A DNA stretch of 63,705 nt, filler included, from Bonamia ostreae (GCA_040357525.1; 10 parts of 10 records of this genome joined end to end with filler, not necessarily neighbours in it), one strand, 5' to 3'. Counted from the whole stretch's first letter, positions 3 to 63,705 are shown. Notes: generated by a model not told the origin, from the sequence alone. Made by a program: numbers and translations.

Positions 3-2726
3 ATGGCTTATTCTAAAGATGGCGCAGATATGACTTTGGCAAAATTGTGGGATAATGAACTTAAATCATTAAAAAAAACTCTTAAAAGAATCAATCTTGA
101 TGAATTTGATCACCAAAATCTAAATTTAAATTATGAGACCTTTTTTCGTAATGATAAAGGTTTTCAAAGTCGAAATCCATGTGAATTGACTGTTGACAAA
201 GACAAAAATGAAGTGAAACTAGAATTTCGGGAGAATGATATACAAGATAACAAACATCTTCATGAATGTGTATCCACATTTATGAAATACTGTCCTTTAA
301 CTGAAACTCCAACAGGCGATTACCCCCTTTTAAAAGTCGTCCGCCTTAGAGACGGCGAAAAACCATTCAATCCAATAGATTACAGGCATGCAGCTAAAGG
401 TTTCATTTTAAAATTCAAGTTGAGTTCGTAAGATACATTATTACGCTTGCGCTGCTTGCTGATAGTTGTAATCTTAGAATTGTGGAATGCATAAATCCTG
501 ATACTCTTGTAGTTGATAAACACGATCAGCTGAGAATAGTAGCGATTAACTGTGATAAACGAGAAAGCGCAACATTTAATGTCCAAATCGTTCTAAATTT
601 CCTGCAATATCTCTTCGGAAATCCCATAAGAAATTCAATCCATGACGACCTTGTATCTTCATTAAAGGGAAAAGCGATCTCTGGTTTTGAGCTTAACGAA
701 AAACTGTATCAACATCCTTTTTTTCACCAAAGCTCTTTTAACGCACTACCAACGGTAGTTTCAGCTATTAAAAACAACACACTTTGGGTTTGCATAGCCG
801 GAAAAAAGGTAATCGAAAAGTCAAAAATGGCTGGCGAAGTCGTTGCAGAAAAGTTTTTTGGCAAAAACATAATGGTTAAGCCTTGGGACAGGAATAAAAA
901 ACCTTCTGTTGAAATTATCAGTACTGAACTTATCGGTAAACGTTGCGTTCAAATTGTTTCCATTATCTCATTAACTTTTTAGTTTAAAAGCGATCAAGCT
1001 GTTGCAGAAACCGAACAAGTTTCTTTCTCAGTTTTTGTAATTCTGTTCGTTAGACAATGTAAACGATTTTTAACAATTTTAAATTTTTAGCTTGAACACG
1101 AAGTATCCGAGTTTATAATCTTAGACAACCGCATCCTTTTTTGCGACGCAATCTTTACACCTGGTTATGAACGTCTCCACAATCATCTTCCCATGATGGC
1201 AGACTTGAAATATGTACAAACAATTAAAGGTAAAGCAGGTATGCTATCCTATCCCTTAAGAGAAGGCAATTTTATTAGACAAGCGAACAAGGAAGGCGAA
1301 CAAAGAATAGGTTGTTACAAATATTTCTAGCTAAACATTTCAAAACACTGATTTCTGCTGTGATCCTGATGAAAGACCCGCAAATTGGCCTCTGTTTGGA
1401 AAGAGACATCCCTTTGAGCAACATGTATATAGATGGCGATAATTTGGTGATCGCTTTTATGGACGCTTCGTACAGGAGTGCTGACAATGCTAACAGTGCT
1501 ATTAGTGACAGTAAAGAGGTTAAAGCACTCGTGACTACATTAAAAAATATGCAGCATGCGACCGGTGATGAAGATTCCAAAGATTTTGACGATTTTATTG
1601 CAAGATTGGAATCAGAAAATCGGATCTCTTACGAGTGTATGCGCCACGAACTGTTTACTCGATTCAGCGAAAATAAATGTCCAGAATTTAAAACCGTGAT
1701 TAACGGAATGCATGCTTCTGTCTTAGATTTGCGAGAACCTATAGAACAACATTACAAACACGTAATTCGTTTGAATGGCGAAAGGCAAAGCATAAGTTTT
1801 GTTTTTAAACAAGTCAGTTATTGATCGACCGAATAAAATGACCTTTAAGATCACGTTTATTAGAAATGACAACTGGTTATTAGATGAAAATCCCGTTATT
1901 TTGGGAATCGAAACTTATTCGAATTACGAAGTTTACTATTTAAAATGGGTACAATCTAACGCTGTTGTTAGAGATGGCAATTTAAGATCATTTCAATTTT
2001 CTTTATGTGGTGATAGATTTGAATCATCCGTGAAACATTTCATGGAAAAATTCCCGATGACAAGTTTTGGCAATTCAGACCCCAATTTATTTCCGTTAAC
2101 AGATTCACTGGAGTCATTACAAACAGTTACAAAATGTTTTATTAAAAACGTTAGTGCATTATACCAAACTTTTCATTATTCTTTGCCTTCAAATGGAAAA
2201 TTTTGGCTTGTATTTATTTGAACCGATCGACTGCGCGGATATTTTTGAAGGACAAAATTCGAACTTATTGATAACTGCATTGGCATTCACTGTGGACCCA
2301 AATAACCACCAAATGAATGTTATTAGATCTCTGGAAAACTTGAATAAAGTTTTAAAAGTGGAAGCTATTGAAAATCTAAGAACTCAAATTGACTCTAGTG
2401 GTTTAAGCGAATATCTTTTACGAAACGATTGCTTTTGGTCACAAAAAAGATCTAGCGCAATGGAAAAACACACAATGCAATTCTCCACAATGGTTCTTAA
2501 GAATGAAGTAGCATTCATCTGCAGAGGCGATGTTACAAAAATCCCATATCTTAACCAAAATGAATGTCTAATATCACAAGTTAGAATTCCTGGTTTAGGT
2601 AAACTAAATCTTTTAGTCGACCCTCTCTCCTTTCCAATCAAAGTATCTCCAGGTATTGTGCTGTTCGCAGAGAAAACTGGGAATTTTAACATCTATTATT
2701 GGTACAGCAAAAAATACTATTATTAA
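3..2726 (+). CDS. Multi-exon ~850 aa protein with three tandem degenerate protein-kinase-like (pseudokinase) modules; possibly 5'-partial
   Basis: Five track ORFs plus two unlisted exons join into one open frame (2544 nt) after removing GT-AG introns 400-419, 956-982, 1019-1090, 1311-1330, 1796-1817 and 2136-2154. Kinase C-lobe-like motifs: RIAKHFKTLISAV...ERDIPLSNMYID...RISYECMRHELF; INPDTLVVDKHDQLRI...QHPFF; RNDCFWS. Confidence 0.7.
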
Positions 2727-2873
2727 ATCTATGTTTAACGAACCTAACCAAAACATTTTTAAAATTTTGTAATTTGCAGATGTTTTACATTTATTGTATT
2801 TGATAATATTCGTGATATTCGACCAAATTGTTTTTTAGTTGCAATCCATAGCTGCCTTTATAGTTAGTATTCT

Positions 2874-3969
2874 TTAAGTAAAATTTTTTACGATAATGTT
2901 TCCGTTTTTATCAAAATACACTTCAGCTTCACCCTTTTTGTCGCAATATGAATTTTTAACATTTGAATAAAATTTATATTTGACAAAAACGGATCCGTGT
3001 TCTTCATCATCCGCAAATTCCTTCAGTCTTACCATTTTCCCGTTTTTCAAGTAAATCTTTGTTGACAAATATATCTTAATACAATTTACCNNNNNNNNNN
3101 NNNNNNNNNNNNNNNNNNNNNNNNNNNNNNNNNNNNNNNNNNNNNNNNNNNNNNNNNNNNNNNNNNNNNNNNNNNNNNNNNNNNNNNNNNGTTCTTTGAT
3201 TTAGAAATTTGTCTCTTTTATAAACAAAATAAACGATCTGCTTTCCATCTTCGCTATATACCAAAGTTTTTTCAGTCTATAAGTTTATGACATTGTGAAA
3301 TGTTAACAGTGTGTAAAGAATCGGAATAGACTAATGTTAGTTTTTTGAGTTTTTCGTTGTCGCCAAAAACGTAAATTTTTGCTTCCTGCGTATTAATTGT
3401 AATACTAACTTTAGAGTTTTCACCAAATTTATGTTGACTGTGTCTTTCTAAATAGTGCAAAATTTAACTTTTCATTCCGTTTTGATAAAATTTTTCGACA
3501 ACTTTGTAATAATTTAAAAAAACGAATTGAAATTATTTTAAACTCGCTTTTTCTTGGGTTGTACCTATAAGTGCTCATTTTGTGTTTCTGTTGAATTTAT
3601 TAAATATCAAAACTTTGGTAATACCGTTTCTGTAAAAACTTTCGAATTGTCTGGACTATAATTAATGCTTTTAAACTTTTGTGCCATTCAAGAAATACTT
3701 TTCGATGAAAAGGCTCTGAATTAGATATATTAAAACTTTTTTGAGTCCGTTTTCGTAAAAGTGTGTTTTGTAAATCTGGATTTTAAGTTTAAAAACATCA
3801 TTAAATCCATATTTAAAAACGATTGTTCTATTATTCTAAAAAATTTGTTATTGTTACAATTTTTGTTCCGAATCTGCTGAAGGTTAAGAATGTTCTTACC
3901 TTTTGATAATTTTTCACAAACTTTATTTCCAAAACTATTTGTCTTTGTTGATCTTTCCTTTAGTTGCAT
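2874..3969 (-). CDS. Hypothetical multi-exon protein spanning an N gap; repeated short Y-x-x-D-G beta-type segments
   Basis: Chain of short minus-strand ORFs (VYSEDGKQIVYF, VYFDKNGNII) separated by micro-intron-like segments; exon structure not resolved. Confidence 0.3.
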
Positions 3970-4245: not shown

Positions 4246-4578
4246 ATGGCGTTTACACCGAAAGCAAAAATCGTTCGCCAGGTAACATCTAAAAAACGCT
4301 TTTAGAAAATAAGTGACGACGGTCTTTGCGGCACATTTTATTTTGTAGACGAAGGGCACACTATCGGAAACATTTTAAAATATTTGCTTGCTAAGCGCAA
4401 AGACGTCGCTTTTAGCGGATACAATGTTCCCCACCCGAACAATAATTTGATGACAGTGCGAGTGGAAGCGAAAAAGGGACATTGTCCTGTTCAAATTTTA
4501 AAGGAAACTTTTAAAACGCTGATAAAATTGTGTTCAGTTCTCGAAACAAAATTCAAAAACGCTTTTGACGAAAAATAA
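4246..4578 (+). CDS. POLR1D: RNA polymerase I/III subunit AC19 (RPAC2)
   Basis: ATG 4246, 24-nt intron 4282-4305; EGHTIGNILKYLL...VAFSGYNVPHP matches the RPB11/AC19 family, closer to AC19 (EDHTLGN...GYxIPHP). Confidence 0.85.
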
Positions 4579-6043: not shown

Positions 6044-6319
6044 CAGTTTAGCTAAATTTTAGTAAATTACGTGCCAGAAACTTAAATTAATGCACTTGCT
6101 AAATTTTAAAAAGAATCTGTTAATTTTTTAATTGTTTAAAAAATCGTCAAACTTTAATTTTTAATTTAAAACTCGCCAAATTGGCGGTTGCTCAAATCGG
6201 AAGAAATAATAACAATTCGGATGAAAAATAATAACCGCCAATTTCAGAGAAAATTTTTTCCAATTCGGAAGAAATGACAACAGTAACTTTCTCTAGAAAT
6301 GGTTAAAATGCTAAGACGA

Positions 6320-6419
6320 NNNNNNNNNNNNNNNNNNNNNNNNNNNNNNNNNNNNNNNNNNNNTTAATTAATTAANNNNNNNNNNNNNNNNNNNNNNNNN
6401 NNNNNNNNNNNNNNNNNNN
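6320..6419. other. Artificial scaffold-joining linker (N-TTAATTAATTAA-N, stops in six frames); first of nine
   Basis: Equivalent 100-nt linkers at 12739, 19150, 25559, 31966, 38357, 44741, 51096 and 57401; intervening scaffolds fall in size from ~6.32 to ~6.2 kb. Confidence 0.97.
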
Positions 6420-9400
6420 TTGTGTAGACCAAATCGACGATTCGTTGTTCGTCGCGATAAAAGTCGAATTTGTTTAAAAGACTAAAATCCTAAAATATTC
6501 AAAAAATTTATCAAAATTTAGCTTTTGTTGTTTTTATCGCTTAAATTTTGTTTTTAGACGTGAACAAAAAACAAGATTAAATAAAAGCAAAATAGGCTCA
6601 TTTTTCGAGCGTTTGGCAGTGGTTCCGGCGACACAAATTTTCTTGGTTTTCTGACAAAACGAAATTTTCATCGGAGCGAAATCTAAAATGTTTTACAAAA
6701 TTTTACGAACCATTAAATTTCCTTTTGAAAACGGAATATTTGTTCGGTTCGTCATCAAAGTTGATTTCTCCGATAAGCAATTTGTCGTTTTTCAAAAACA
6801 AGTAATTTTTTGTGTTCTTTAACAAATTTTTGGCAAAAAAATCGATTTTGCAAAATTTAAAAATTGGAACAAAAAATTTTTAAACACAAAATTTTTGAAA
6901 ACAATAAGATTTTTATATGAATGAGAATATCCTTTGTCTAAATTCTCAGAATTGGAAATGTAAAAATAGTCTTTCTTCTCCACATCGAAACAAATCGTTT
7001 CTTCGGACGACGCCAATAAAACTCGTCGTTGGAGGTACTTCGTTGCCGATATTTTTACGGGAAATTGCCCCAATTTGATTTTGCAGAGAATACTAAATTT
7101 TTGACATTTTAATTCAAAATTTGCAAATTTAAAATAAAGCGAAGTCAAAAAACTTGAAATCAAATTTGTAGTCCATATAACCGAAAACACAATTCCCATC
7201 GTCTAAATTTTAAATTTGGTGATAAAACTTAGCCCAAACGCGATAATCAATTTTCCCCCGTCAAAATGACTATCCGCCGAAACAACAAAATTTGGAAATA
7301 CCAATTTTAGATTAATCGGGATTTTGACTAATTTAGAATGTGCAAAATTTTGAATTTGGACACAATTTTGAGTTGAGTCAAAATATCCAATAACAACAAA
7401 AAAAGTTTTAATTGACAGATCGTAGGCGATCGAGAAACTGGAAACTTGCTTTTCGGTTTCAGAAAAAAATGCTATTTGACTAAATGTCATATTTTTTCTG
7501 TTTAAGTTTAGCAGAAGAATTTGGTTTTTGTCGTTCAGAATTAGAATTTTATCGTGTTTTATTGCGCTTTGCGTCGTTTTATGTTGCGTTTTGTGTGTTA
7601 TTAAAACTCTGGCCAGATTTTCAGAATCCAAATTAGCCAAATTTGGACTGAACTCGATCAAATTGATCGAGTTTTCTGTTATCTGAATTAAGTTGTCGTC
7701 GATTTTTTCGAATTTAATCGTTCTGTCAAAATTAAGCCATTTCGGAGTTTCGATTTCTTGTAAACTGTTTTCGGAGAATTTGAATATTCTTGTTTTTTCG
7801 TAAAATGTCTATAATTGAGCAAATTTCAAATTTGGTGAAATCGGGATATTAAAATTTTTTTCAAAAAAACCAACAGAACAAATGGCCCAAAAACAAAAAT
7901 ATCGATGCATTTTCTAATATTTAGCTCTGAGACTTTTGTCATCTCCAAACTTTTTTCTAAAATTCCGATTTGGCCAAAAGTTTTGTGCCCGGTACAAAAC
8001 AGAATTTTTTGATGGTCATTTTCAATTTTTGCTTTGCGAATCAATTCGATGTCTTTTATCGGCCCAACATTCGAAAACGTTTTTAAAGTTTCCACGGTTT
8101 TCCCGATGTTTAAGTTGTCGTTTATTCTCACGATCTAAAATGTCCAGTTTTTGCAATTTTTTTCACAGTTATTTTATCAAAATTTTACTCGAAAAAATAA
8201 AAAACTTGCGAATCATCGCAAATAGAACCGATAAAGAACGTCCTGGGACCTATTTTCGATAAACAGTGTGCAATGTTGGCAAAACCGATTTTTTTGGCAT
8301 TTAATTTTGCAATTTTCCGTTTATTGTTTTTTATAAAAGTGACGTTAATGATTGCCCCGATGTCGTCTGATAACAAAACCGAGTTGTTTTCGTATAAAGG
8401 ACAAGTGGCCAAAATATTAGCGGGAGAAAATGAGATGTTGGCCATGAATTGTCCTTCGTTGTTTAGAAAGGATATTTTGGAATTTGATATTACTAAAATT
8501 CCTTCAATCGGCTTGCACAGACTTTTTAACAATGAAGATGTTGAGGGAACTTTTATCTCTTTTCCTTCTTTAGAAATTTGTTTTCGAGTGATTATTTTTA
8601 AGCAATTTTGTCATTTTCGCGATTTTTTTATTTTGGTAAAATTTTTTTTTAAGTTTGTTAAAATTTTTTGCTTTTTTTAGTTTGTTAAAAATTTTTGCTT
8701 TTTTTTAGTTTGTTAAAAATTTTTGCTTTTTTTTAGTTTGTTAAATTTTTTCTCTTTTTAGTAAATTAATAAAATTGCAAACAAACCAAATTTTAACTCA
8801 AAATTGTCGATATCGACTTTATAAATTTTGATGTAAGAATCGTTTTTATGTTTTGAAAAGTTTGTCGGATTATAAAGAACAGCGATCAAAGTTGTTTTTC
8901 TGTTATGCAGAAACTGAATTGAAGCGATAACATTGTTATCCATTCTTCAAATAAAATTTGTTTCCAAAATTTTTACAAATTAAAATTTTTCCAATTATAA
9001 AATTTAAAATATAAAACAATGAATCGAAAGCTCGGTTATTCCTTTCTTCGGGGAAAATATCAATAATTTTAATTTTGGATTTGTAAAAATTTAACGCGGC
9101 TAAAGATTTTGACGATTCGACATCGCCTTGAATCTTCGCGCCGATAGGATCTCCCCAAAAATCGTTTATATTGTTTACAAAATGGGTGCTGATTTTCGAA
9201 GATTGCGCATTGAACGAAATAGAGACGTATTGGTACTTTTCTGTGACGAAAAAAATGTAATGTTTAGATGTGCTCAGGGGCCTATAAGTGGCTAAAAATA
9301 TTATGTTGCCGTTGATCGGGACATCGAAGAGGTTTGATAACTTTCCGTCGCCATTTTCGATTTTATGAATTTGGAGACAATTGTTTTTTCTGTAATTACG

Positions 9401-9517
9401 AAAAAGTTACGCGAGCACTAGATTTTTGTCGCTGACGCTCGTGAAATTGCAAATCGCAGAATGAGTTACAATTGTTGACGTTGTTAGTTTTTTTACATAT
9501 AAACAATCTTCCGCCAT
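6420..9517 (-). CDS. DDB1: DNA damage-binding protein 1 (beta-propeller), 3'-truncated by scaffold end, many introns
   Basis: N-terminus MAEDCLYVKKLTTSTIVTHSAICNFTSVSDKNLVLA-KNNCLQIH...VPINGNI resembles DDB1; also FFIGSICDDSQ, FSNVGPIKDI and CTGHKTFGQIGIL. Confidence 0.85.
8636..8752. repeat. ~28-bp tandem repeat (TTAGTTTGTTAAAAATTTTTGCTTTTTT, ~4 copies) in a DDB1 intron
   Basis: Directly visible repeat units. Confidence 0.8.
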
Positions 9518-19254: not shown

Positions 19255-19848
19255 TTATATTTGGTCAAAATCAAAATCGTCAAAGTTATCGTTGTATTCG
19301 AGAATGTGTTTTTTGATTTTGGAGCCGGGGACCCAAGTGACATAGTCTTCCATTGTGCGCGTTACGAGAAAAGCCGGATCGATGATCGTGTTCGGACCGA
19401 CTCTGACGTCTTAAATTAATTGTTAGAACGGCCTTGCTCGACCAAAGTAGTCGCTTCTTTCAGGTTTTCGGCCATCTTGCTCATTTGCATTATGACTGGC
19501 AAACGGCGTCTGCAGAATGCCGACGCTGGAATTCTGTCGCACTGTTCCAGACTTTTGATTGTTTTGATCACGCCCAAATTGTAGCTTAAAATAGTTTAAA
19601 GCGAACAGCTTAAGTAGCAGCTCTTTGGTGATTTTTTTCCTGATGATGTCTGTTTCGTCCAGCAGTTTCAGTTTCGCGGACAGTTTCCTTATTTTTCCCG
19701 TCAGTCTGTTGTAGCTCACGTAGTCTTCCCTATTTTGTATTCTGTAGCGCCTCAAAATGCGCACTTCCCTCACGTTATCGTCGGATTTCCAATCGTAGAG
19801 ATTGACCTTTTTCAGGAGTTTCTTCTCATGATGTTTGAGCTTCCGCAT
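19255..19848 (-). CDS. IMP3: U3 snoRNP protein IMP3
   Basis: [15 protein letters not shown]...[11 protein letters not shown]; 22- and 20-nt introns restore KLYNLGVI and EQGHVRVGP...[16 protein letters not shown]. Confidence 0.95.
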
Positions 19849-19887: not shown

Positions 19888-21338
19888 ATGGGAAATAATC
19901 CATCCGGAAACGCAAACGACCAAGTTTTCTAAAACAACGAAAAGGAGAAAAAGTACGAAAAGCCGAAGACCACGATCAACTTTGGACGGAAAAAAACTCG
20001 TTACAAAGGCGGAGACAGCAGTCTCTTGAAGCTGCCAGAAATGTTTTTGCATTTAAGTGTAAACGGACAAGATTTCATTTAAAAAACTTGTAATTCCATC
20101 TCGTCGGGAGAGATTTGTAATTCCATCTTTCCAATTAAAACTAAATCGAAAAAAGATTGCCACTCACGAAATGCCGACTCCGCGAACTGAGGCTGGAACG
20201 CGTCAAAGACTACCTTATTATCCAAAGAGCGTACGCAGAAAAACAAGAGAAACTTCTTCGCGAGCGCGAAGGCGGCCAAAACGACCGCACCGCCCAACTG
20301 CGCAAGCAGGTGGAAGACATGCGGGGCGCCTCCATCACGCTCGGAACACTCGAAGAACTTGTGGACGACGGGCACGCCATCGTCTCCTCGAACGTCGGCC
20401 TCAAATACTACGTCAACATCCTCTCCTTCGTCGACCGCGACTTAGTCGAGCCCGGCTGCTCCGTCTTGCTGCACTCGAAAGCCCTCAGCGTCGTCGGGGT
20501 GCTCCAAGGGCGGACCGACCCCCTCGTCAGCGTGATGAAAGTAGACAAGGCTCCGCTGGAGAGCTACTCGGACGTAGGAGGGCTGGAGCAGCAGATGCAA
20601 GAGGTGAAGGAGGCGGTGGAACTGCCGATGACGCACCCCGAGCTCTACGACGACATCGGGATCTCTCCTCCCAAAGGCGTCATCTTCTACGGGCTGCCCG
20701 GGACGGGCAAGACTCTGCTCGCCAAAGCAGTCGCGAACGAAACCTCCGCCACCTTCCTCCACATGGTCGGCTCCGAACTGGTGCAGAAGTACCTCGGAGA
20801 CGGGCCGAAGCTGGTCCGCGAGCTGTTCAAAGCGGCGGAGGAGAACGCGCCCGCGATCGTCTTCATCGACGAAATCGACGCGATCGGCGTGAAGCGCTAC
20901 TCGTCCCAGTCGAGCGGCACGCGGGAAGTGCAGAGGACGATGCTGGAGCTCTTGAACCAACTGGACGGGTTCGACTCGCGCGGCGAAGTGAAAGTCATAA
21001 TGGCGACCAACCGGATCGACTCGCTGGACCCGGCGCTGCTGCGGCCAGGCCGCATCGACAGGAAAATCGAGTTCGGGCTGCCCGACGCGGCCACGCGCCG
21101 CAAGATCTTCTCGATCCACACTGCGCGGATGACGTTCGCGAGCGACGTCGATTTGGAGCCGTTCGTCGCTGCGAAGGAGGACCTGTCGGGAGCAGACATT
21201 AAGGCGATTTGCACGGAGGCGGGGCTCCTCGCGCTGCGCGAGCGACGCATGCAGGTCTCGCAGGAGGACTTCTCAAAGGCGAAGGAGAACGTGCTGTCCA
21301 GAAAGAAATCTGGCTTTGCCGAGAGATTGTATCTGTAA
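19888..21338 (+). CDS. PSMC1: 26S proteasome AAA ATPase subunit 4 (Rpt2)
   Basis: MGNNPSG N-terminus, two introns, [49 protein letters not shown]. Confidence 0.97.
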
Positions 21339-21882: not shown

Positions 21883-24019
21883 TTATTTCGAAAACTCCCT
21901 TAGTAGACTCGTTGCGTAACAGGACGAAGGCAGATCGAATTGCAGTTGCGCGGCGCAAAATTTTTCTCTGTCTATAATTATTCCAGACTTTTTTTCGCAG
22001 TCGACTGTTTTGCTGCTCTGCTCCTCTCCCAGAGTTCTGTCCACTAACTGTTCATTTACCATTTCAGAAAAAGACCCGTTTTCTATTAGTTCCGGTTGTT
22101 CGACCGGCAAACTATTCTCCAGACCAGAACCAAATTTCGATTTGAAATTGAGGCAGCGCATCATCAGCGGCCTGTAGTTCGGGTAAATGATCAGAGACCT
22201 GTCTTTCCGCAACTTCTCGACCAGTTGATCGCTGATTCCTTCTTTCTTCAGCTCTGCCTCGTAACTATTTTTGGAACTCAAAACATTTCCCCGGCTTCGT
22301 TGCGCGGCAATTCGCACCCAGCGCAAGGCAACGGAAGGACTACGTCAAATATGGAGAAGTCGCCGGAATCGACATCGGCCTTTCCCAAAGAGCGCACTAA
22401 CGTTTTCGTTTTGCGGCCCGAACTTTGGGCCATCCCTTGTTCTTTCCCCAAAACGACCAAATCGCCGACGACTGGGGAGAAGCCGTACTTTTTTAGGCGC
22501 GCGGACGCAGCTTTGTTCCAAATGTAACTTTGGAAGGCGTGCACATAGATCGACTTAGTTTGCCTGGCTATCTTCAATTAGCGAATTCAACCGAGTTGAA
22601 CGCGTCTCGACTGTTGATGTTCTGCGACAACCTCTCCAGAACCGGTCTTTCCACGGACAAATGTTTCTGTTTCAAGTTTCAAATTTTAAAAATTTTGGAA
22701 TATTGAGACAGACGATTAGAGACATATAAATTTATAAATTCGCAGCGAAAATGTGAACCGGGCAATGTTTCAAAGCTTCACTGAAACTCTTTTTGTTTTT
22801 TAGTGTTTCTGCGATTTTTCTGTGTTGCGTCGGCAATTTTCCGATTTCGCTTTGAATCACAAAGAAAACTCGGTGAATAGAATCAGCGCGACCAACTCGT
22901 CCCATTGTCTTTTGAGGACCAGCTTCCCGAAGTTGTGCGTGGGGACAGAACAACTCCCGAATCGTTGCAGCCCAAAGTAGTTTATAAACCCGTTTTCCTT
23001 GATCGACTCCGAGATCGCTTCGAAGTCGTTCTTTCTCTTCTTTTCGATTTTGCGGAGAACTATGTTGAAGCGATTTCCGTCCAATTGGCCGAGCGAAAGC
23101 GGGCGGACCTGATATTCAAAATCTCCCACAAAGAGGCGTCTGCTAAATCTTGAAACGTCTCTGACCCGCTTCGCTGTGATTCTTTTGGCGCAAACGCGCT
23201 GGATCGTCACCGCTTTTCTATCCTTGTTGCCGCAAAACGAAAACAGTTTTGGACGCAATCTCATCTTTCTGCACAAAATTTAAATTTGATATATCAACGA
23301 TGAAAGTGCGCTTACAGCGTCCGCCGTCGTGCAGTTGCCCTTCAACACACTAAAGTGCAAATACTGTTTTTCGTTGTCTTTGAAAAAGTTGTCCGCGGGA
23401 TTGCTCCGCAGTTTTGTTCCGTCGACTTTTCTGAAGATCTTAAAATTACTGCAAAACTTTTATGTTTTTCAAAGAAGATTCCGCTTCGCCATTTACCGTT
23501 TCGCTGTCAAAAAGAGAAAAGTTTTTCGATATCATTTGGTGCACCAGTTTTCTGTCTTCTTTGTTGAGCTTTTTTTCTATTTTCAGAGCTGCTTCCTCTT
23601 TGTCGGCCTCTTTGAGAAAAGCCAGAACACTGTTCTTTTCTTTTTGAGGCAATAATTCTCTCAAAATTTTTTCAGCTTCGATGCAAGCTATTTCTTTCGT
23701 CGGATAGTTAGTCCGCTCAAATTTCCTTTTTCGCTTTAGGCGATAAAAATCACATTCCGTTTGCGGCAGTTGGCAATTTTTCAGAACAAGAGGAGCTTTA
23801 GATCGCGGGATTTCTTGCACGAGGAAGTCCCTGCATTTCTGTTTGACTTCAAATTTCATTCCCGGAACCTCTTTGCTAACAAACTCTGTCATTCCGACAG
23901 ACTTTTGATTCGCTTTTCCTGTTCGATATTTTGAGCTTTCAGCTATTTCCAAATAGCGTTCAATCGCAGCTCTAAATTTAAAAATAGTCCAACTTTGATG
24001 CTTCATCCAATAAAGACAT
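21883..24019 (-). CDS. PUS7: TruD/PUS7 pseudouridine synthase
   Basis: VGMTEFVS..KQKCRDFLVQEI, GNKDRKAVTIQ, GFINYFGLQRFG, YVHAFQSYIWN, FDLPSSCYATSLLRE; micro-introns; start 24019 inferred. Confidence 0.92.
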
Positions 24020-26071: not shown

Positions 26072-26763
26072 ATGACCAAGACACACAAAATCACTAAAAT
26101 GGGAAAAGCCCCCAAACCCCCTAAAATCCACATTCTGCTTCTGAACGCTTCTTTAGAAACACTTAAAACGAAAAATGGCTTCGAACTTCTAGATTGCGAT
26201 GCCCACAGAAGCATTCTTTTGAAGCTCAAAAAAGATCCAAATCTGTTTCGACCCGATATCGTTCACCAATGTCTTTTGACTCTGTTGGACAGTCCCTTGA
26301 ACAAATCGGAAAAAATTTCTATTTTTGTCTCGACTCAAAAAGTTCTAAATTTCACAAAAAGAACGTTTTGATAAAAATAAATTCCAAAACGCGTCTCCCG
26401 AGAACATTCCGAAGATTCAGCGGATTGATGGCTCAATTACTTCACAAAAGAAAAATAAGAGCAGCGGAAAACAAAGAAGTGAAATTAATCCAAATCATTA
26501 AAAATCCCATCACAAACCATTTGCCCACAAATTGCCTAAAAATAGGAACCGCAATGTCCGGAAAGCTTGTAAAACTTTCAGAGTTTTTGCCAAGTCTTCC
26601 TAGAAATTCCCCTGTTTTGTGGACGATTGGGGCAATGGCCCACGGAGAAGCCAGAGCTGATTTTGAGGAGAAATCAGTTTCGCTTTCAGAATTTGCTCTA
26701 TCGGCTGCGACGGCTTTAAGTAGAATTTGTTGTTCGTACGAAGAATTTCTTGGCATTTTATAA
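26072..26763 (+). CDS. EMG1: rRNA pseudouridine N1-methyltransferase Nep1/Emg1
   Basis: RPDIVHQCLLTLLDSPLNK, RLPRTFRRFSGLMAQLL, IGAMAHG; intron 26342-26361. Confidence 0.96.
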
Positions 26764-29860: not shown

Positions 29861-29962
29861 CGGATATAAAGCTAGCTTATAAATAAAACTATTTAATAAA
29901 ATATTAAAGCTAATTATTTGCAAACGTTATATCGAATATATTTAGTTAAACAAAAAGAAAAA

Positions 29963-39681: not shown

Positions 39682-40054
39682 ATGAGCAACACAGTAATTG
39701 CTCCGTCAAACTTAGTACCATCTAAAAACGCCAACGCGCTAGCTGGCGCGAAAAGCGACCCTTTCGAGCTAATATTAATGTCTCTCGACGAAGTCATTTA
39801 CGTAAAATGCAGAAATGACGTTGAGCTCAAAGGAAAACTTCACGTTTTAGCTGAAAATAAAATTACAAACACAAAAGTCCTACGACGAGCACTTAAACAT
39901 CATTCTCGAAGATGTTGTTGAAACAAAGGCGAAAAAAGAGTTTGACGTTTCGGTGGGAGAAGCTATTTTGCGAAAAGACATAAGGCGAATGGACATGTTG
40001 TTTGTTCGCGGAGACGCCGTAATGATGATATCTCCGCCTAGACGCACCAAATAA
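39682..40054 (+). CDS. LSM3: U6 snRNA-associated Sm-like protein LSm3
   Basis: [41 protein letters not shown]...MLFVRGDAVMMISPP; intron 39844-39877. Confidence 0.95.
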
Positions 40055-45817: not shown

Positions 45818-48800
45818 ATGAGCTTTGTTATCCGGACATCGAGTTTTCTAAAGGCGACCCAAAGAGTTTCGGTGAAAAATCTCCAGACTCAGCCGAGCAA
45901 TCTCGTTTTCCATGATTAGCATCGGCTTTTTTCCATAATAACTTTTTCAATTTATCGTGTTGCGTTTGCCATCTCTCCAAATCCAAATTTGTCATTTCTA
46001 GGACGAGCACGATTTCTTCTACGACGCCGAGATACTTTCCAGTTTAACCAGTCGCTGGACCGAACCCGTTTTGTCCCTCGGCCGCCTTTCGCAATTGGGC
46101 GGGCCGGAAGGCATCAGCAGAGCCCTGAGAACCGATCTCCGCGAGGGCTTGTTTTCGGACGAAGTCGAAGGAAGCGACTTCAGCAAGCGGGAGTCGGTTT
46201 ACGGCGCCAACCGTTTCGAGAAGAAACCGCCCCGCAACTTCTTCTTGTTTTGTCTCGACGAGCTCAAAAACCCCATTCTCGTCGTCCTTCTGGTCGCCGG
46301 GATCATTTCCGTCGTAACCGGGATCGCCCACAACCCCGAAGAGCACGGCTACACAGAAGGCCTCGCGATCATCTTCACCGCCTTAATCGTGGTCTCGGTC
46401 GCGGCCGGAAACAACTACGCAAAAGAACGGCGCTTCCGCGCTCTCGACGACAAAAATGACGCCAAGTCGGTGATCGTGGTCCGCAGAGGCCGCGAAGAAG
46501 TCGTCGCCAACACCAAAGTGCTGGTCGGCGATCTGATCGCGCTCTCCACCGGAGTCTCCGTCCCGTGCGACGGCATCCTCGTGAGCGGATCTGCCGACTT
46601 GACTTGCGAGGAAAGCGCTCTCACCGGCGAGACCGACGCCGTCCGCAAGTCGCGCCGAAAACCGTTTCTTCTGGCCGGCACAAACGTCGCAGACGGCGAA
46701 GGGCTGATGCTCGCCACAGCCGTCGGAGCGCGCACTTGTTGGGGCGCCCTCTTAAAAGGGCTGTCCGCGGACCACGCAAAAACTCCGCTCGAGCGCAAGC
46801 TCCAGAAACTGGTCAAAATAATAGGAATCGTCGGCGCTGTGCTTTCGGTGCTCATCTTCGTGTTCAAATTTGTTTATTGGGTCGTCGAGAACTACCCGAA
46901 CAACACTTACACCGACAACCTCGAGGAGCCGCTGGAGTACTTTCTGGTGTCGATTTCGTTGTTGGTGGTGGCGATTCCGGAAGGGCTGCCGTTGGCGGTG
47001 ACGATAACTTTGGCGTTTTCGATGAAGAAGATGTTCAGAGACAACAATTTTGTGCGTGTTCTGTCGGCTTGTGAGACGATGGGCAACGCGACGACGATCT
47101 GTTCGGACAAAACGGGGACGCTCACGCAAAACACGATGACGGTGGTGGAAGCGTGGCCGGAGGTGTTTGAGCCTTCGGTGGACGGTCCATGGCCTGTTTT
47201 CAGAGAACCGAGGCCTTCGAGCGATTTCTGCGATGCTTTGTTGGAGGGGATTGCCTTGAACACAAAAGCTTTCGAGATCGAGAGGACTAAATGGAAGAGA
47301 TCAGATCGACCGGTTAATCGCCTTTTCCAGAATTTTATTGCCGATATTTTTCAAACTCATTTTTTATTTAAACTAGTCATTTTCTTATTTAAACTGCAAA
47401 CTTTGCGATAAAACATCTTATTGCAAACTTTGCAAAATCATTTTCTTATTTAAACTGCAAACTTTGCGATAAAAACATTTTCTTATTGCAAACTTTGCAA
47501 AATCATTTTCTTATTTAAACTGCAAACTTTGCGATAAAAACATTTTCTTATTGCAAACTTTGCAAAATTATTTTCTTGTTTAAACTACAAAAATTTAGGA
47601 ATACGCAGGAGGAAACAAAACAGAATGCGCCGTATTTTCTTGGGGACATTGCCTCGGTGCCGAAAATGAAGTGATTAGACAAAGAACTCCCATAGAAAAG
47701 GCTTATCCTTTTACAAGTGCGACGAAAAGAAGTTCGGTACTTGTCAGACATAATAACGCGTACAGGATGCATATGAAAGGTGCTGCAGAAAAAATCTTGA
47801 ACGATTTTTGCACCAAAATAGTTTTTTGCTAAAATTTCCGACTAATTTGTAGCTAACACCAGAAGGCGAAATAGCATCAATAGACGAAAAGAAGAGAATG
47901 CAAATTGAAGAAGAGATAAATTCCAAAGTTTCAAGGGGACTTCGTTGCATCTGTCTCGCTTTCAGGGATTTCGATAGCTCTACCATCTTAAACTCGTACG
48001 ATCAAATTGTCGATCCGCCTTTAGTCGATTTCGTCTTCGTTGCGATAATTGCTCTTAAAGATCCTTTGCGTCCTGATGTCTTGGATTCAGTGCAAAGATG
48101 TCAGCAATCTGGAATAGTGGTTAGAATGGTCACTGGAGATCATCCCAAAACAGCAGAATTTATAGCTGCTGAATGCGGCATTCGACCTACTGAACGCGAA
48201 GATTTACTCGTTATGACAGGCGAGGAATTTCGTGTTATGGACGAAACGGCGTGTAACAAAAAATTACCAAAATTGAGAGTTTTGGCAAGGTCCACCCCAC
48301 AAGACAAAGAGCGACTTGTTAAATGGTATATGAAAAACAATGATGTTTTTAAATTTTCTAATGTTTCTATCGTTTACAAAAAATAATCGTTTACAAAAAG
48401 CAAGTTTTGCTTTTATAAAAATCAATTTTTTATCGTTCACAAAATGCAATTTTGCAAAAATAAAAGACTGTTTCCGTCACTGGAGATGGCGCAAACGACG
48501 CTTTGGCGTTAAAAGAAGCGGACGTCGGTTTATCGATGGGGATTCAAGGAACGGATGTCGCTAAAGAAGCTTCCGATATTATAATTCTCGACGACAGTTT
48601 TGCATCAATCGTTGAAACAGTGAAATGGGGTCGTTGCGTTTATGACAATATTCGAAAATTTGTTCAATTTCAAATTACAATAAACACCGTCGCCGTTTTG
48701 GTCTCTTTCATCGGTGCTTTTGTAAATTATAACGACATCACCGATTTTCCGTTGCCTTTCAACCCGGTGCAGTTGCTTTGGATGAATTTGTTAATGGATA

Positions 48801-53564: not shown

Positions 53565-55235
53565 ATGGAGAATTTCAGCACAGGAATCAAAATAGCAGAC
53601 ATCAACGATTATGTAAATTTGGAAACTGATTGCATTTTTGACGAAAGCAAAGAAAGTCCGAAAAACAAATCAATTGTAATTTAAGCTTAAAATTTATTTA
53701 AGAAAATATCTCAGAAAAACTTGGTTAGCATCAAAAGCCAATCAAAAGCAAAAAGCCATTTCAATCAAATTCGAACAAATCCAAAAACTAAAAACGCCAA
53801 AATCACGTTGGAAGACTGTCTCGCTTGTAGTGGCTGCGTCACTTCTGGTTTCAATTCTTAATAAATTGAAAATAATTAAATTAAATTTGAAAAGCGGAAA
53901 CCGTTTTGATAGAACAACAAGACACTGCACAATTTGTAAAAATGGCCAAAAATATACAAAAAGACCACATTTTTATTGTAACAATTTCAACGCAATCAAT
54001 CGTCTCCATTGCCAACAAACTAAAAATAAAACCAGAAGAAGCTTTTAATAAAATCCGAGATATCTTGATAAGAAACTATAATGTTTCTATTGTTGTTGAT
54101 TCGGCAACCGGTTTCGACCAATTTAAATTAAGGGAACTATTTGGCGCTCAAAGAGTCCATAGTCGAATTTTTGAAAAGGTCATTTTTCTTTTAAGTTTAG
54201 ACTAGAACAAAACGAAAATTTGCCGATTTTAAGTTCAGAATGTCCTGGGTGGGTCTGTTACGCAGAAAAAACTCTCGGCAAATCTGTCATCCCATTAATG
54301 AGGTTTGCAAAATTTGTCAAATTTAAGCAAAGTAAAATCCGCTCAAGCGACGATGGGCTCATTAATTAAAAGACATTTTTCGGAAAATTTCAATCCGCAG
54401 AAAATGCTTCATGTAGCAGTGATGCCTTGCCCGGACAAAAAACTTGAATCGTCTCGGAGTCAACTCGCTTTTACCCAAAACGGGAACAAAATTAGAGAAG
54501 TCGATTGTGTTCTCACAACAACAGAACTTTTCGATTTGCTAAATTTTGAGAATTTTGTCAATAATTCTCAAAATCTGGATTTCAAAAGAAACCTCAAAAC
54601 TGAAAACTTTAAAATATTAAAGTCAAATTTTAATGGCAGAATTAACGAAAAATCGTCGTCAGGAGGATATATTCAAAATATTATCGATTATTTTGTTGCT
54701 TCTGAAAATTCAGTTGTGAAGCAACAGAATATCAGTGCAGATTTCAAAATCGTCACTGTTACTGTTTTTAAGGATAACTTTAATGATTATTAGCTTTGCT
54801 GTTTTGTTTTTTGTCATATTAAATTTATTGCAAAATTGAAGACAAAAAAATTTGGCGACATTAACTTAATTTACGCTTACGGGTTTAGAAACATTAGCAA
54901 GATATCTCGACAGATAAAATCAAATTATTTTGGCGATAAAAAAGTACATTTGATTGAAATAATGGCCTGTCCTTCTGGTTATTTTTTAAATTCACAAAAT
55001 TATTTTTAAAGGGTGTTTAAACGGGGGCGGACAACTTCGACCCGAAAGCAAAGGCGTTCGTTTTCAAAAAGAACTTGTCTCCGAGCTTTACTCAGATTTT
55101 AACGCTATCAAAATTATTGATGATAATTTTTCGAAAGATTTGGACTTCATGTACAAAGCTTTAAAAAGAAAGAAAGAATTTTTTAAAACTGATTTTAACG
55201 ATAACACTCCAAAACAAGAGTCGCTATCATGGTGA
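53565..55235 (+). CDS. CIAO3: Cytosolic Fe-S assembly factor NAR1/NARFL
   Basis: [61 protein letters not shown]-terminal W. Confidence 0.95.
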
Positions 55236-57968: not shown

Positions 57969-58380
57969 ATGAGTGGCATTAAAATTCCTAGAAATTTTAA
58001 GCTTCTAGAAGAACTCGAAAAGGGAGAAAAGGGAAACCAAGCTAATAACGTCAGCTATGGCTTAGATAGAGACGATCCAAAACATTCCTTTTGGAGTGGC
58101 ATTATAATCGGACCTAAAAACGTTTTAAAACCAATTTCAGACTATTTACTCTGACAAAATGTACCGCCTTAAAATTTTTATTGGCGAAGATTACCCTGAT
58201 GTGCCCCCAGAAATACATTTCGTAGACAAAATAGATTTAAAATGTGTTGATTCTCACGGAAAAGTCTTCATAAACAAAATTCCAAAATTTAATTGGACTA
58301 GAGACAAAAGCATCGAACTTGTGTTACTGCAAATACGTCAATTAATGACTAAAAATGTTTATAGACAACAAAGACGATGA
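57969..58380 (+). CDS. UBE2V: Ubiquitin-conjugating enzyme variant MMS2/UEV1
   Basis: [17 protein letters not shown]...VSYGL...WSGIIIGP; 19-nt intron 58122-58140; no catalytic Cys region typical of active E2s. Confidence 0.95.
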
Positions 58381-58993: not shown

Positions 58994-61616
58994 ATGGACA
59001 ATATCCACGTTTTCTTTTGATAAAAAAGGAGCTGATAAGGAAAACTAGAAGAGCAAATTCAATCGCGAACGAGAAAATAATACTCGACAACGAATGCGCC
59101 TTAATACGAACCGCGTTCAAAAACGAGTCCTTCAATTGCTTCAGACGAGTAAACGTGGAAAAGTTGATTTATTTGAGCGTCCTCGATTATCCGACCTACT
59201 TTGCTCAAATCGAAGTGCTCAAACTCTGCGCTTCGAATAGCTTCACCGGTTGCCAACATGTTATAATCAGACAAGAGAATCGGCTACCTCGCGCTTAGTC
59301 TGTTGCTCAACGAAAAGTCGGAAACGCTGATGCTCGTGACTCAGACTCTGAAGAAGTTTAATTATAACGGCAAGCGATCTGCACGGGCCCAACTCGTACA
59401 TAACATCGTCTGCCCTCGGCGCCATAACATTCATCGCGTCCGAAGAAATCACGAGTTTTCTAAGACACCAAAAACAACTTTCAAGGGGACATCGTGCCGA
59501 TTATCGAACGGTTGATGTTGAGCGAACATGCAATTGTCAAGAAAAAGGCCATTATGTGCGCAGCGAAAATGATGCGGAAAGTTCCGGATTCGATCGAAGC
59601 GATAAATTTCCACAAAATGAAGCTTTTTAGCGAGAAAAACAATTCCGTGTTTTTGACTCTTTGCCATCTTTTGCAGGAATTGCGGAACTACGAAAACTAC
59701 GAGACTCAGCTTTATCAGGCGAAACAGCAGTTATCGTATTTTGAAAAGTTTTTCAAAAAACTGGTCACTGCAGATTTCAATCCGGTTTCTGATTTCTATT
59801 AAGCCATTTCCGGATTTTTGCATTTAACTTAAAACGATATTTTTTCGATTTTAGTGATATCGCAGTGTCAATTAAATAACCGAGTATTGTCAACAGTAAA
59901 ATTTGGATTAAATAATGGATTTGGCTAAAATGACAAATTTAGGATTATAGTGTCAACGGAGTGAACGACCCGTTTTTGCAGGTGAAAATAATTCAGTTGC
60001 TGAAAAGTTTTCGTCCAGGGAGAAATGGCTCCAAAGAAGAGTTTTCGACTGTCATACAAATCGCTTCGAGTGCCGAAAACAGTTCCAATTCGAACGGAGC
60101 GAGGCTCTTCGAGTGTGTAAAGGTTGACTGATTTGCATTCCAGTTCGCTAAGCTTACTTTTTAACTAAAGACAATGTTGTCCCACGTGAGCGAAAGTTGC
60201 TTTAAAGCGATGGCGATCGACATTTTGGCTCGCTTTTTGAATTCGAAAGACAACAATTTTAAGTTTGAATGACCAAATTTAGGTTCGTCTCATTAAACAC
60301 TCTTTCGGATTCGATCAGAGAAAAAGAAATGATTTTGCAGCATCAATTCACTATTATGGACTGTCTTTGGGACAAAGACAGTTCTATTTCCAACAGAGCT
60401 TTGGTTTTTATCCTGAAAAACATTCTGTTGATCATTTTTATTCTGACAAATTTGGCCGCGATGACTCAGTTATTCGAACTTAGTGTGCACATTCGGGTGA
60501 GCACGGGTTCAAATACCGGTGTTGTCGTTTCCTAATTTGACTGGATTGCCCTAAAAATCTCAGACTTTGAATGTCTGTGTTAAACTATGGACAATTTAAA
60601 AATACAAAATTTGTAAATTTTTGGATTTTTGCAAATGGTAAAATTTTTACAAATGCACAACAAATGGTTAAATATCTTCAAAAACGAAGTGTTGACATTC
60701 ACAACGAAAAATTTACTAAAATATTTATTTTAAAACTGACGAAGAGATTGATTAAATTATAAAAAGAAACAAAAATCGTTAAAAAAATTTTAAAACTGTC
60801 AAAAAACTGTAAAAATATTGACAAAAATAAAAAAAAATTTCCTAAAAACTGTAAAAAAGAATTTAAAAACTATTTAAGGATTTGCTGCACAATTTGACGT
60901 GTGAAAAGAACTACAAAATAACGATAAAAGAATTTTTAAAATTTATGTCTAAAAAAAATTTGGACTCCGAGTCATCCAAGTCACTTTTGATCAAAATTTT
61001 TAATACTCTTGAAAAACATGAGAAAGACAGCAAACGATATATCGACTTGCTCTCAGCAGCCATTTCAAAAGTTTAAGTTTTGGCTAAAATGCCTTTATTT
61101 TAGACAAGCAAAACAGACGAATTCGTCAATAGAAAATTCTCTAACTTCATTAAACGCGGGGACGCTAAAACGCAAAAATACTTTGTAGACAAAATGGCCG
61201 AGACGATTTTCGAGCATATCTCGGAACCCATTCTGAATCTGGCTTTTTGGGGAATGGGCGAATACTTTGATTTGGCAGTTTTGTTTTATTGAAATTTAGG
61301 AAACGCAGAATAAGAAAAAGGTTTTTTTAAATTGTCTCTAAAGATAATAAAGGCGATGGATTTAATTGGCGCAGACCCACTTTTAGTCTTGTCGGAGAAA
61401 TCGATCTATTTTTACGCGAACACTTTGTTTAAGATTTTATTGGCGAACAATAAAAAGTTACGATTTCAAATAAAGAGCACATCACTAAAATTCATCATTT
61501 TATAAAAAAGATACAACGAAAAAGTAGAAGGATTGCTAAATGCCCTGTTAGTCACGAGCGATTTGACTTTAAAACAAAGATTGATTTCTTACAAATTGGC
61601 ATTAAAAGCAATATGA
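58994..61616 (+). CDS. AP1G1: Gamma-adaptin (AP-1 gamma)-like, trunk domain only
   Basis: ELIRKTRRA...ECALIRTAF, YPTYFAQIEVLKL, KRIGYL, GVNDPFLQVKI, FLNSKDNN; ends LKQRLISYKLALKAI*. Confidence 0.85.
60454..60560 (+). mobile_element. tRNA-derived SINE-like element; second partial copy at 52309-52390
   Basis: A-box-like TGACTCAGTT and B-box GGTTCAAATACC; shares TGTCGTTTCC, CCTAATTTGAC and TGCCCT blocks with 52309-52390. Confidence 0.55.
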
Positions 61617-62772: not shown

Positions 62773-62978
62773 TCTGATTTCAGAAACTCAATATACTTTA
62801 AAGCTTGAGCTTTAAATAATTTTAGCGTTTTGATATAGAATAGTTATCTTTGTCTAATTATTTTTAATATTTTTCAATATAACACTTATTAGATTCAATG
62901 ACCGAACGTAATTATTAACTATTATTAGATAACGTTCACGCAAGTTTCGCGAAGAGGTACTACACACCAAAAGCTTCA

Positions 62979-63705
62979 ATGTCTGAAAGAGATAGAAATT
63001 TAAAACGCTTCAAAGCTATAGAGAATTCTCCAAAAACGAAAAAACATTTGATTATCGAAAATATCAATTTTAAAGACCATTTTGACAAAATTAAATCCGA
63101 AAGTTTCAACGAAAGAATCGAGAAAATGGCACTCCAAATCAATCAACAAATTTATGAAAATCCGACGAATACTAAAAAATGGCTTAAATTAGTCAATTTA
63201 GAAGACGAAAAAGTACTCGACAACAGACAATTAAAAAGCTTTGTTATATTATTTCTTATTTTTAGAAAAACGAAAAGAAACTTCTTATATTAGAAAAGGC
63301 TCTGAACAAAAATCCGGACGACATTACATTATTGCTGCAATATCTAAACATCGCTGAAGAAATTTACAGCATTGAACGAACAGAAAAATTGTGGAATCTA
63401 ACAATAAGACATAACCCAAATTTAGTTAAAATTTGGAAGAAATATTTGTTCTTCGAGGTCCACTCAACTTTGGAAATTTTGAACGTCAATTATTGTCGAG
63501 CTAAATTTGAGAAATTAGTTGACTTGGCAACATCTTTGTTTAAAGAAGAACAATTAACCAAACTGAATTTTCAACGAGTGCTCGAAATGATCTTTTTACA
63601 ACGAATCTTGTTTGAATTGAGCGTTTTTTTGTCATTTTTAATTTAAAAAATTATATTCCAAAATTTTTGTTTTTTAGTCAATAAAGATTTAATCAAATAT
63701 TGAAT
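62979..63705 (+). CDS. NRDE2: NRDE2-like HAT-repeat nuclear RNA factor, 3'-truncated
   Basis: ENPTNTKKWLKLV, KLLILEKALNKNPDDITLLLQYL, LWNLTIRHNPNLVKIWKKYL. Confidence 0.75.

Follow-up and report, generated by a model that had tools for sequence, protein, structure and literature searches.

Both ultra-short introns, which occur in several lineages, and splice donors with U at positions +3 and +4, which occur in Entamoeba, are already described, and both are met again here in the introns of a 63,705 nt stretch of DNA (the window) from Bonamia ostreae, a flat-oyster parasite of the Haplosporida (Ascetosporea, Rhizaria). In the canonical case GUAAGU is paired by the 5' end of U1 (ACUUAC), while the ACAGA of U6 pairs with donor positions +2 to +6; in Entamoeba the donors are GUUUGU(U), the U1 end reads ACAAAC and the intron has its branch point some 8 nt before its 3' end, and the same account ties transformed donors that do not match U1 to intron-poor lineages (10.1101/2022.06.08.495308). 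Mikrocytos mackini and Paramikrocytos canceri, both mikrocytids, are reported to have introns of 16 nt (217 of 224) or 17 nt (7 of 224) and a strongly reduced spliceosome of which only U2, U4, U6 and 17-19 spliceosomal proteins were found, and the lengths cited in the same paper are 18-21 nt for chlorarachniophyte nucleomorphs and 15-16 nt for heterotrich ciliates (PMC10245619). Median intron lengths of 22-27 nt are given for myxobolid myxozoans and Dicyema japonicum (PMC13644364). For Bonamia, the main text of the Ascetosporea genome paper reports 'canonical introns' at a mean of two per mRNA, with gene models from funannotate at default settings, and places splicing-gene loss on the branch of paramyxids plus mikrocytids (PMC11069148). 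The strings 'intron' and 'splic' are absent from the text of the Bonamia transcriptome paper, and in the literature searched, which took in the main text of the genome paper and had the subscription papers on haplosporidian actin genes outside its scope, neither feature was described for Bonamia or for any haplosporidian.

We catalogued 44 introns in 12 genes of the window (Table 1), of which 13 are supported by RNA, 22 come from mapping of annotated proteins and nine from reading frames combined with homology. About 40% of them have been reduced to a minimum of 19-22 nt while the rest reach up to about 500 nt, and both size classes share a GU donor followed by a run of U, an AT-rich body, A at -8/-7, U at -5 and an HAG acceptor. 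Very likely these are GT-AG introns of the major-spliceosome type, ordinary in kind, which B. ostreae reads by a lineage-specific splice code.

Excision was examined in sequencing runs. Of the words sampled from the window, two DNA runs contained 93% and 85%, a run that is probably RNA (X3) 52%, and an RNA-seq run from another study (X8, labelled 'mollusc metagenome') 9%. The read comparison covered one contig of the window (25659-31965), and the remaining 31 of the 44 introns rest on other evidence. On this contig all 13 GT/GC..AG segments were absent from RNA-derived X3 contigs and present in the DNA run X1. At six sites every X3 contig lacked exactly 19-22 nt which X1 retained, and seven longer segments of 45, 88, 36, 117, 238 (across an N gap), 160 and 142 nt were likewise skipped. 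Twelve of the 13 skipped segments were GT..AG and the thirteenth was GC..AG, indicating that minimal introns also tolerate a GC donor variant; the 21 nt skip at the latter site was found in X8 as well. GT/GC..AG ends were imposed by the method for the 31 mapped or frame-derived introns and were not imposed for the 13 supported by RNA. Because X3 skips these segments, X8 skips one of them, X1 keeps them and their ends are GT/GC..AG, the excision is at the RNA level with spliceosomal ends and is not a matter of indels or DNA elimination, and the segments are confirmed as real spliceosomal introns.

The notion that they are assembly indels, strain differences or the product of excision at the DNA level draws on the guessed identity of X3 as RNA and on the chance that the best DNA run is the very sample behind the window assembly. 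We give it almost no credence, since GT/GC..AG ends bound all 13 segments, long frames and contiguous Pfam profiles return once the segments are taken out, homologues at 46% and 89% identity continue uninterrupted across segments, and X8, RNA-seq from another study, shows the same 21 nt skip together with a poly(A) end. That end was seen as loose poly(T) at position 29132, which is 14 nt beyond the stop codon of a ribosomal protein L6-family gene (29146-29853, minus strand), and therefore represents a poly(A) tail on a very short 3' untranslated region of this gene. Retention would bring an in-frame intronic stop in 33/42 introns, including 10/11 of those with a length that is a multiple of three.

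The shorter introns measured 19 (three introns), 20 (six), 21 (five), 22 (four), 23, 24, 26, 28, 31, 32, 33, 34 and 36 nt, and the longer ones 45, 48, 61, 62, 71, 73, 86, 88, 92, 113, 117, 142, 158, 160, 219, 238 and 475 nt. Thus 22/44 are at most 30 nt and 27/44 at most 36 nt long, and 17/44 fall between 45 and 475 nt. The termini were GT..AG in 43/44 and GC..AG in one. At the donor GTT predominated (38/44, 86%), with three GTA and one each of GTG, GTC and GC; GTTTT began 21/44 introns (48%), and the commonest hexamer, GTTTTT, accounted for only 8/44. U was present at +4 in 29/44, at +5 in 26/44 and at +7 in 25/44. The donors do not follow the canonical U1-matching GURAGU, as a purine at +3 and G at +5 were each found in 5/44, which lowers the case for a canonical consensus and not the case for spliceosomal introns. 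The U12-type donor [AG]TATCC was found in 0/44. GTT was the donor in 9/13 RNA-supported introns, 21/22 annotated ones and 8/9 of those from frames and homology, and in the RNA and homology subsets combined its excess remained at p=0.002.

At the 3' end the acceptors were AAG (20), TAG (18), CAG (6) and GAG (0), and the acceptor is accordingly HAG rather than YAG. No pyrimidine tract was found in the 44 introns, the pyrimidine fraction at -15 to -4 being 0.48-0.53 and the A fraction 0.40-0.44. U occupied -5 in 31/44 (70%, p=1e-5), and A occupied -8 in 25/44 (p=0.013) and -7 in 23/44 (p=0.06). The exon side was nearly free of signal (G at -1 in 16/44). In these respects the original prediction, of GTT donors, A-rich 3' ends with frequent AAG and +3 to +6 positions which rarely fit U1, was borne out; the length range of 19-30 nt which it gave describes half of the introns but leaves out the 17 of 45-475 nt.

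GTT and AAG might be simple by-products of T- and A-rich introns, the machinery needing only GT and AG. The window is 32% G+C, T follows 45% of its GT dinucleotides, and the frequencies of AAG, TAG and CAG fit intron base composition (p>0.3 each). The donor does not behave in this way, with U at +3 in 86% against an expected 37-45% (p=1.3e-8 against window GTN; p=3e-11 against intron composition, T 37.5%) and A at +3 depleted, being present in 4/44 where 38% would be expected (p=3e-5). An excess is likewise seen for U at -5, and no acceptor has G at -3 (p=3e-5 relative to NAG in the window; 0.002 relative to the composition of introns). Composition by itself is therefore a very unlikely explanation of the splice signals.

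The original prediction had also proposed length-defined splicing by a reduced or altered spliceosome. On this reading a spliceosome with U1 lost or vestigial and U2AF altered would measure intron length, much as appears to be the case in lineages with introns uniformly of 15-17 nt, and sequence signals would be secondary. In favour of such a scheme are the sharp pile-up at 19-22 nt, the donors unlike the canonical U1 target, the lack of a pyrimidine tract and, in the published description, the mikrocytid precedent of introns that are all 16-17 nt, read by a spliceosome of which 17-19 proteins and U2, U4 and U6 were found (PMC10245619). A pile-up at a lower limit near 15-21 nt was indeed observed, with 18/44 introns at 19-22 nt and none below 19 nt. 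A fixed-length regime, with nearly all introns within 1-4 nt of each other, was not: lengths ran from 19 to 475 nt and 17/44 were above 36 nt. The 17 introns of 45-475 nt show these signals too, with the donor held still more strictly (GTT 16/17, U at +4 in 14/17) and U at -5 in 14/17, and both size classes were present within 6/12 genes. As long introns and micro-introns share genes, donor and the U at -5, we conclude that one machinery handles a 25-fold range of lengths, and length-defined splicing is not supported.

The decoys point in the same direction. Within 7.7 kb of exon of fully known splicing we counted 27 unspliced GTT..HAG segments of 19-24 nt, which have the right length and the right ends. 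Their inner G+C was 0.45, compared with 0.20 in the true introns of 19-24 nt (n = 20), and the two sets hardly overlap, so that true introns are told from decoys by composition and 3' motif and not by length. Exons and introns contrast strongly in composition: overall G+C is near 32% and reaches 40-46% across highly conserved genes such as the coding regions of RPT2 (20063-21391) and a P-type ATPase (44841-47411), and introns are about 20%. In the main text of the genome paper, moreover, the enrichment of splicing-gene loss is placed on the ancestor of paramyxids and mikrocytids and not on Bonamia (PMC11069148). Taken together these results make a length-measuring spliceosome unlikely here.

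Tandem arrays of at least 20 nt (TRF) were present in 6/15 introns longer than 60 nt and in 0/29 shorter ones, and made up 18% of the bases in introns above 60 nt compared with 4.5% of the window. Often such arrays, which are AT-rich, make up most of a long intron, as do the five copies of a 28 nt unit in the 219 nt DDB1-like intron. Their confinement to introns above 60 nt suggests an origin of long introns from short ones through the expansion of minisatellites. A further array, 3.4 copies of a 65 nt unit at 95% identity, lies in the P-type ATPase intron at 47313-47598 (plus strand), for which several boundaries fit. In the 238 nt intron of the CDC73-like gene the exon end and donor are duplicated within the intron.

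Returning to the lineage-specific splice code, recognition would be by intron definition on the shared signals together with the contrast of exon and intron composition, and not by length. The putative branch point would be the A at -8/-7, kept close to the 3' splice site. GUUUU could not pair with canonical U1 at +3 to +5 and would be complementary to a NAAAAC-type U1 end; one route to such a donor would be a co-evolved U1 in which NAAAAC replaced ACUUAC, as Entamoeba did for GUUUGU. Alternatively the donor would be read mainly by U6 and U5 with a weakened U1 step, and GUUUU would be a better partner than GUAAGU for the A residues of the U6 ACAGA at +2 and +4; the mikrocytids exemplify an outcome of this second kind. 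We lean slightly towards a re-written U1 over a U1-poor mechanism, because Entamoeba took that route and Bonamia lies outside the branch of splicing-gene loss with introns reported as 'canonical'. That U1, U6 and U2AF are divergent in Bonamia, as the original prediction suggested, is plausible in view of the reduced spliceosome of mikrocytids and the altered U1 of Entamoeba. The wider proposal is that haplosporidians, in an intron-rich genome, re-tuned recognition of the 5' splice site, either with U1 re-written for GUUUU(N) or with U1 pairing largely abandoned in favour of U6/U5 and proteins that bind the U-run; this we put forward tentatively, as possible and short of probable.

Several points weigh against our interpretation. 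The catalogue is limited to 44 introns from 12 genes on ten small contigs, and half of the introns come from annotation whose predictors may have learned the GTT signal; with RNA-supported introns alone, 9/13 GTT gives p=0.07 against the window background. X3 was called RNA by a guess and its RNA nature was deduced from its own skips, X8 supports just one micro-intron and one poly(A) end, and retention rates are not readable from contigs. The A at -8/-7 may be plain composition. No small nuclear RNA (snRNA) gene was found in the window with Rfam, either at the gathering threshold or at E<=1. Finally, the supplements of the genome paper, of which the main text is cited here, may already list intron statistics (PMC11069148).

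The window consists of ten separate B. ostreae contigs of 6,205-6,319 nt, joined by nine artificial linkers each made up of 44 N, TTAATTAATTAA and 44 N, and as it is a composite no feature can be read across the joints (Table 1); seven more scaffold gaps of 100 N lie inside the pieces. The genetic code is standard, since long frames end at TAA, TAG and TGA alike. No tRNA was found in the window with ARAGORN, and the Rfam scan gave only four sub-threshold matches to microRNA models, at two loci (25470-25529 and 34377-34480).

For the 22 annotated introns, four Bonamia proteins were placed letter for letter on the window with GT/GC..AG gaps allowed, and for P0121 with a minimum exon length. These gave two introns in RPT2 (P0002), four in a PUS7-like protein (P0121), nine in a DDB1-like protein (P0122) and seven in AP1G (P0123, of which the mapping spans the C-terminal two thirds of AP-1 gamma), altogether 22 introns over 6.1 kb of coding sequence placed without mismatch, or about 3.6 per kb. 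The frame 20145-21335 is 100% identical to the 438 aa NCBI entry 'ATPase of 26S proteasome regulatory subunit 4 [Bonamia ostreae]', and exact mapping places three further proteins, which either carry the name Bonamia ostreae or match the window at 100% identity, on other pieces. A dicyemid origin, suspected from the 'mollusc metagenome' label of X8 and the known 26 nt introns of dicyemids, was rejected on the identity of the RPT2 frame. P0122 was considered as the U2 snRNP protein SF3B3 and rejected; by comparison with the PDB it is DDB1-like, and it is uninformative on the spliceosome. The AP1G homologue P0124 (46% identical) continues across the three N-terminal AP1G introns in tblastn. For the second IMP3 intron a 33 nt alternative is disfavoured by a weak S4 match which ends at the last residue of the upstream exon.

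Every intron given as an example in the original prediction was located. Both IMP3 introns (with Ribosomal_S4 support), the EMG1 intron, the RPT2 intron and the UEV1 intron (GTTTTA..TTCAG, with UQ_con support) are as it described them. The LSM3 intron is real and splits the Pfam LSM match, but at 34 nt it is outside the claimed range of 19-30 nt. The AP1G example was found as a 20 nt GTTTTC..AAAAAG segment, but its support is frame consistency and it is listed as probable.

Table 1. Introns and artificial joints of the window. X3, X1 and X8 are the sequencing runs named in the text; P numbers denote mapped or homologous proteins; 'array' marks introns bearing a tandem array.
Feature	Position	Strand	Length (nt)	Ends	Support or remark
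EMG1	26342..26361	+	20	GTTCTA..AAG	absent X3, kept X1; Pfam EMG1 1-79 / 78-197
AP mu-subunit	27309..27353	+	45	GTTTAG..CAG	X3 joint
AP mu-subunit	27662..27680	+	19	GTTTTT..TAG	absent X3, kept X1
AP mu-subunit	27826..27913	+	88	GTTTTG..TAG	X3 joint
AP mu-subunit	28038..28073	+	36	GTGAGA..AAG	X3 joint
AP mu-subunit	28229..28250	+	22	GTTTTC..TAG	absent X3, kept X1
AP mu-subunit	28413..28529	+	117	GTTTCG..CAG	joint in 2 X3 contigs
CDC73-like	30206..30226	+	21	GTTGTT..AAG	absent X3, kept X1
CDC73-like	30335..30572	+	238 as assembled (spans 100-N gap)	GTTTTA..TAG	X3 joint; array
CDC73-like	30663..30683	+	21	GTAAAA..TAG	absent X3, kept X1
CDC73-like	30781..30940	+	160	GTTATT..AAG	X3 joint; array
CDC73-like	31152..31293	+	142	GTCTTC..AAG	X3 joint
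CDC73-like	31457..31477	+	21	GCAAAC..TAG	absent X3 (skip at 31455) and X8, kept X1
RPT2	19924..19944	+	21	GTTTTC..AAG	P0002 mapping; 89%-identical homologue P0003 continues across
RPT2	20043..20155	+	113	GTTTTT..AAG	P0002 mapping
PUS7-like	22850..22869	-	20	GTTTTC..AAG	P0121 mapping
PUS7-like	22667..22758	-	92	GTTCAC..CAG	P0121 mapping
PUS7-like	22572..22591	-	20	GTTGAA..AAG	P0121 mapping
PUS7-like	22265..22284	-	20	GTTTTG..TAG	P0121 mapping
DDB1-like	9390..9410	-	21	GTAACT..CAG	P0122 mapping
DDB1-like	8945..9017	-	73	GTTTTA..AAG	P0122 mapping; array
DDB1-like	8568..8786	-	219	GTTTGT..AAG	P0122 mapping; mostly 28-nt array (TRF)
DDB1-like	8135..8205	-	71	GTTTTT..TAG	P0122 mapping
DDB1-like	7809..7870	-	62	GTTTTT..TAG	P0122 mapping
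DDB1-like	7203..7228	-	26	GTTTTA..TAG	P0122 mapping
DDB1-like	7093..7153	-	61	GTTTTT..TAG	P0122 mapping
DDB1-like	6817..6902	-	86	GTTTTC..AAG	P0122 mapping; array
DDB1-like	6683..6710	-	28	GTTCGT..TAG	P0122 mapping
AP1G	59785..59942	+	158	GTTTCT..TAG	P0123 mapping
AP1G	60123..60170	+	48	GTTGAC..AAG	P0123 mapping; stop-containing insertion vs homologue P0124
AP1G	60263..60282	+	20	GTTTGA..TAG	P0123 mapping; P0124 tblastn break
AP1G	60404..60878	+	475	GTTTTT..AAG	P0123 mapping; tblastn break; array
AP1G	61071..61103	+	33	GTTTAA..TAG	P0123 mapping
AP1G	61278..61299	+	22	GTTTTG..TAG	P0123 mapping
AP1G	61321..61343	+	23	GTTTTT..AAG	P0123 mapping
AP1G	59249..59270	+	22	GTTGCC..CAG	frames; Pfam Adaptin_N 7-57 / 58-86; P0124 tblastn break
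AP1G	59356..59374	+	19	GTTTAA..AAG	frames; P0124 tblastn break
AP1G	59455..59485	+	31	GTTTTC..AAG	frames; P0124 tblastn break
IMP3	19585..19606	-	22	GTTCGC..AAG	frames; Pfam Ribosomal_S4 1-72 on exon 1
IMP3	19410..19429	-	20	GTTCTA..AAG	frames; weak Pfam S4 1-26 (E 0.096) reaching last residue, exon 2
RPB11	4282..4305	+	24	GTAACA..TAG	only frame-joining candidate; Pfam RNA_pol_L_2 on downstream exon
UEV1/UBC-variant	58122..58140	+	19	GTTTTA..CAG	only frame-joining candidate; Pfam UQ_con position 40 = next exon's residue 1
LSM3-like	39844..39877	+	34	GTTTTA..AAG	frames; Pfam LSM 5-26 / 27-66 across two exons
P-type ATPase	47821..47852	+	32	GTTTTT..TAG	only GT..AG candidate joining two Pfam-supported frames
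AP1G, probable first intron (outside the 44)	59009..59028	+	20	GTTTTC..AAG	frame-consistent only
Nar1/Fe-hydrogenase-like, probable (outside the 44)	54303..54327	+	25	GTTTGC..AAG	predicted, site model trained on the 44
Artificial joint	6320-6419				
Artificial joint	12739-12838				
Artificial joint	19150-19249				
Artificial joint	25559-25658				
Artificial joint	31966-32065				
Artificial joint	38357-38456				
Artificial joint	44741-44840				
Artificial joint	51096-51195				
Artificial joint	57401-57500				

Three junctions for which several GT..AG solutions fit were left out of the 44, namely those of the P-type ATPase near 47313-47598 and 48318-48466 and that of the Nar1-like gene near 54764-54841. 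In the latter gene the exons that flank the probable 25 nt intron match Pfam Fe_hyd_lg_C 65-90 and 98-197. Its frames 54302-54790 and 54794-55006 (plus strand) are in the same phase with one stop codon between them (54791-54793), likely reflecting an intron with a length that is a multiple of three, for which several GT..AG solutions of 30-129 nt fit. Counts of frame-joining GT..AG segments showed no excess over seven control dinucleotide pairs at any length in the window, because chance candidates swamp the signal. A Viterbi gene finder was tried on codon log-odds by themselves, then given a length prior, Pfam hints or a site model derived from the 44 introns, and recovered only 4/11, 4/11 and 18/44 of those already known; 29 extra predictions were not counted, and only the Nar1-like one is listed, as probable.

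Two of the mapped models look truncated. That of AP1G (P0123) starts at 59515, and the similarity to P0124 extends into exons upstream of it (58994-59514, plus strand), which are separated by three micro-introns backed by homology and by a probable fourth for which the support is reading frame only. That of the PUS7-like protein (P0121) starts at 23262, and an R3H_PUS7L match and PUS7-like sequence lie upstream of it (23265-24006, minus strand). The four exactly mapped proteins have 2-9 introns each, compared with the two per mRNA given in the main text of the genome paper (PMC11069148). Gene models thus suffer, two of them apparently truncated and the published mean being below the mapped counts, and the gene catalogue of Bonamia, a notifiable oyster pathogen, would gain from splice-aware re-annotation.

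Two other genes drew attention. A Nup98-96-like gene has a gap of about 500 nt (34253-34753, plus strand) between positions 76 and 78 of Pfam Nucleoporin2, presumably one long intron; we take the sub-threshold microRNA-model matches to a hairpin within it (34377-34480) as chance. An RRM protein (5459-6058, minus strand) is encoded by a single exon, with a charged-residue-rich tail of 27 nt repeats (5575-5681). It may be a splicing or exon junction complex-type factor; its nearest RRMs in the PDB are those of nucleolin and RNPS1, which is uninformative on the spliceosome.

Compared with known systems, Bonamia resembles Entamoeba, as described in the cited account, in having U rather than A at +3 (38/44) and +4 (29/44), with U at +7 in 25/44, and in its AT-rich introns, the branch-like signal some 8 nt upstream of the 3' splice site and the lack of a pyrimidine tract (10.1101/2022.06.08.495308). 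It differs in that Entamoeba is intron-poor, keeps G at +5 and has exactly GUUUGU in 88-90% of introns, whereas Bonamia is intron-rich, has U at +5 in 26/44 and G in 5/44, and its top hexamer reaches only 8/44. A donor of this kind at about 3.6 introns per kb of coding sequence would test the idea that it is few introns which allow co-evolution. If U1 has been re-written, this would be a second independent case of co-evolution of snRNA and splice site after Entamoeba, and the first in which the near-universal G at +5 was abandoned.

Myxobolids and Dicyema, in the description available, are like Bonamia parasites with many introns below 30 nt, reduced logos, no pyrimidine tract and a weak A-run before AG which is taken as the branch site; they are animals, however, and their donor reduces to GTa with A at +3, while Bonamia, a rhizarian protist, has U there in 86% (PMC13644364). 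Nucleomorphs and heterotrich ciliates share with it the pile-up of minimal lengths around 20 nt, although by the lengths cited for them nearly all their introns lie within a range of 2-4 nt, compared with 18/44 at 19-22 nt plus long introns in Bonamia. The combination of U at +3, +4 and +5, no G at +5, a degenerate consensus, high density and long introns alongside a floor of 19-22 nt is apparently undescribed. The mikrocytids share the class Ascetosporea, an AT-rich reduced genome and introns near the shortest known lengths; as reported, their introns are highly conserved and few per gene, whereas those of Bonamia span 19-475 nt, are dense and are degenerate apart from GUU (PMC10245619). With its floor of 19-22 nt and its long introns under the same signals, in one class, Bonamia may show where the mikrocytid extreme came from, and if recognition was indeed re-tuned the haplosporidian lineage would be an intermediate between normal rhizarian introns and the 16-17 nt, U1-less mikrocytid system.

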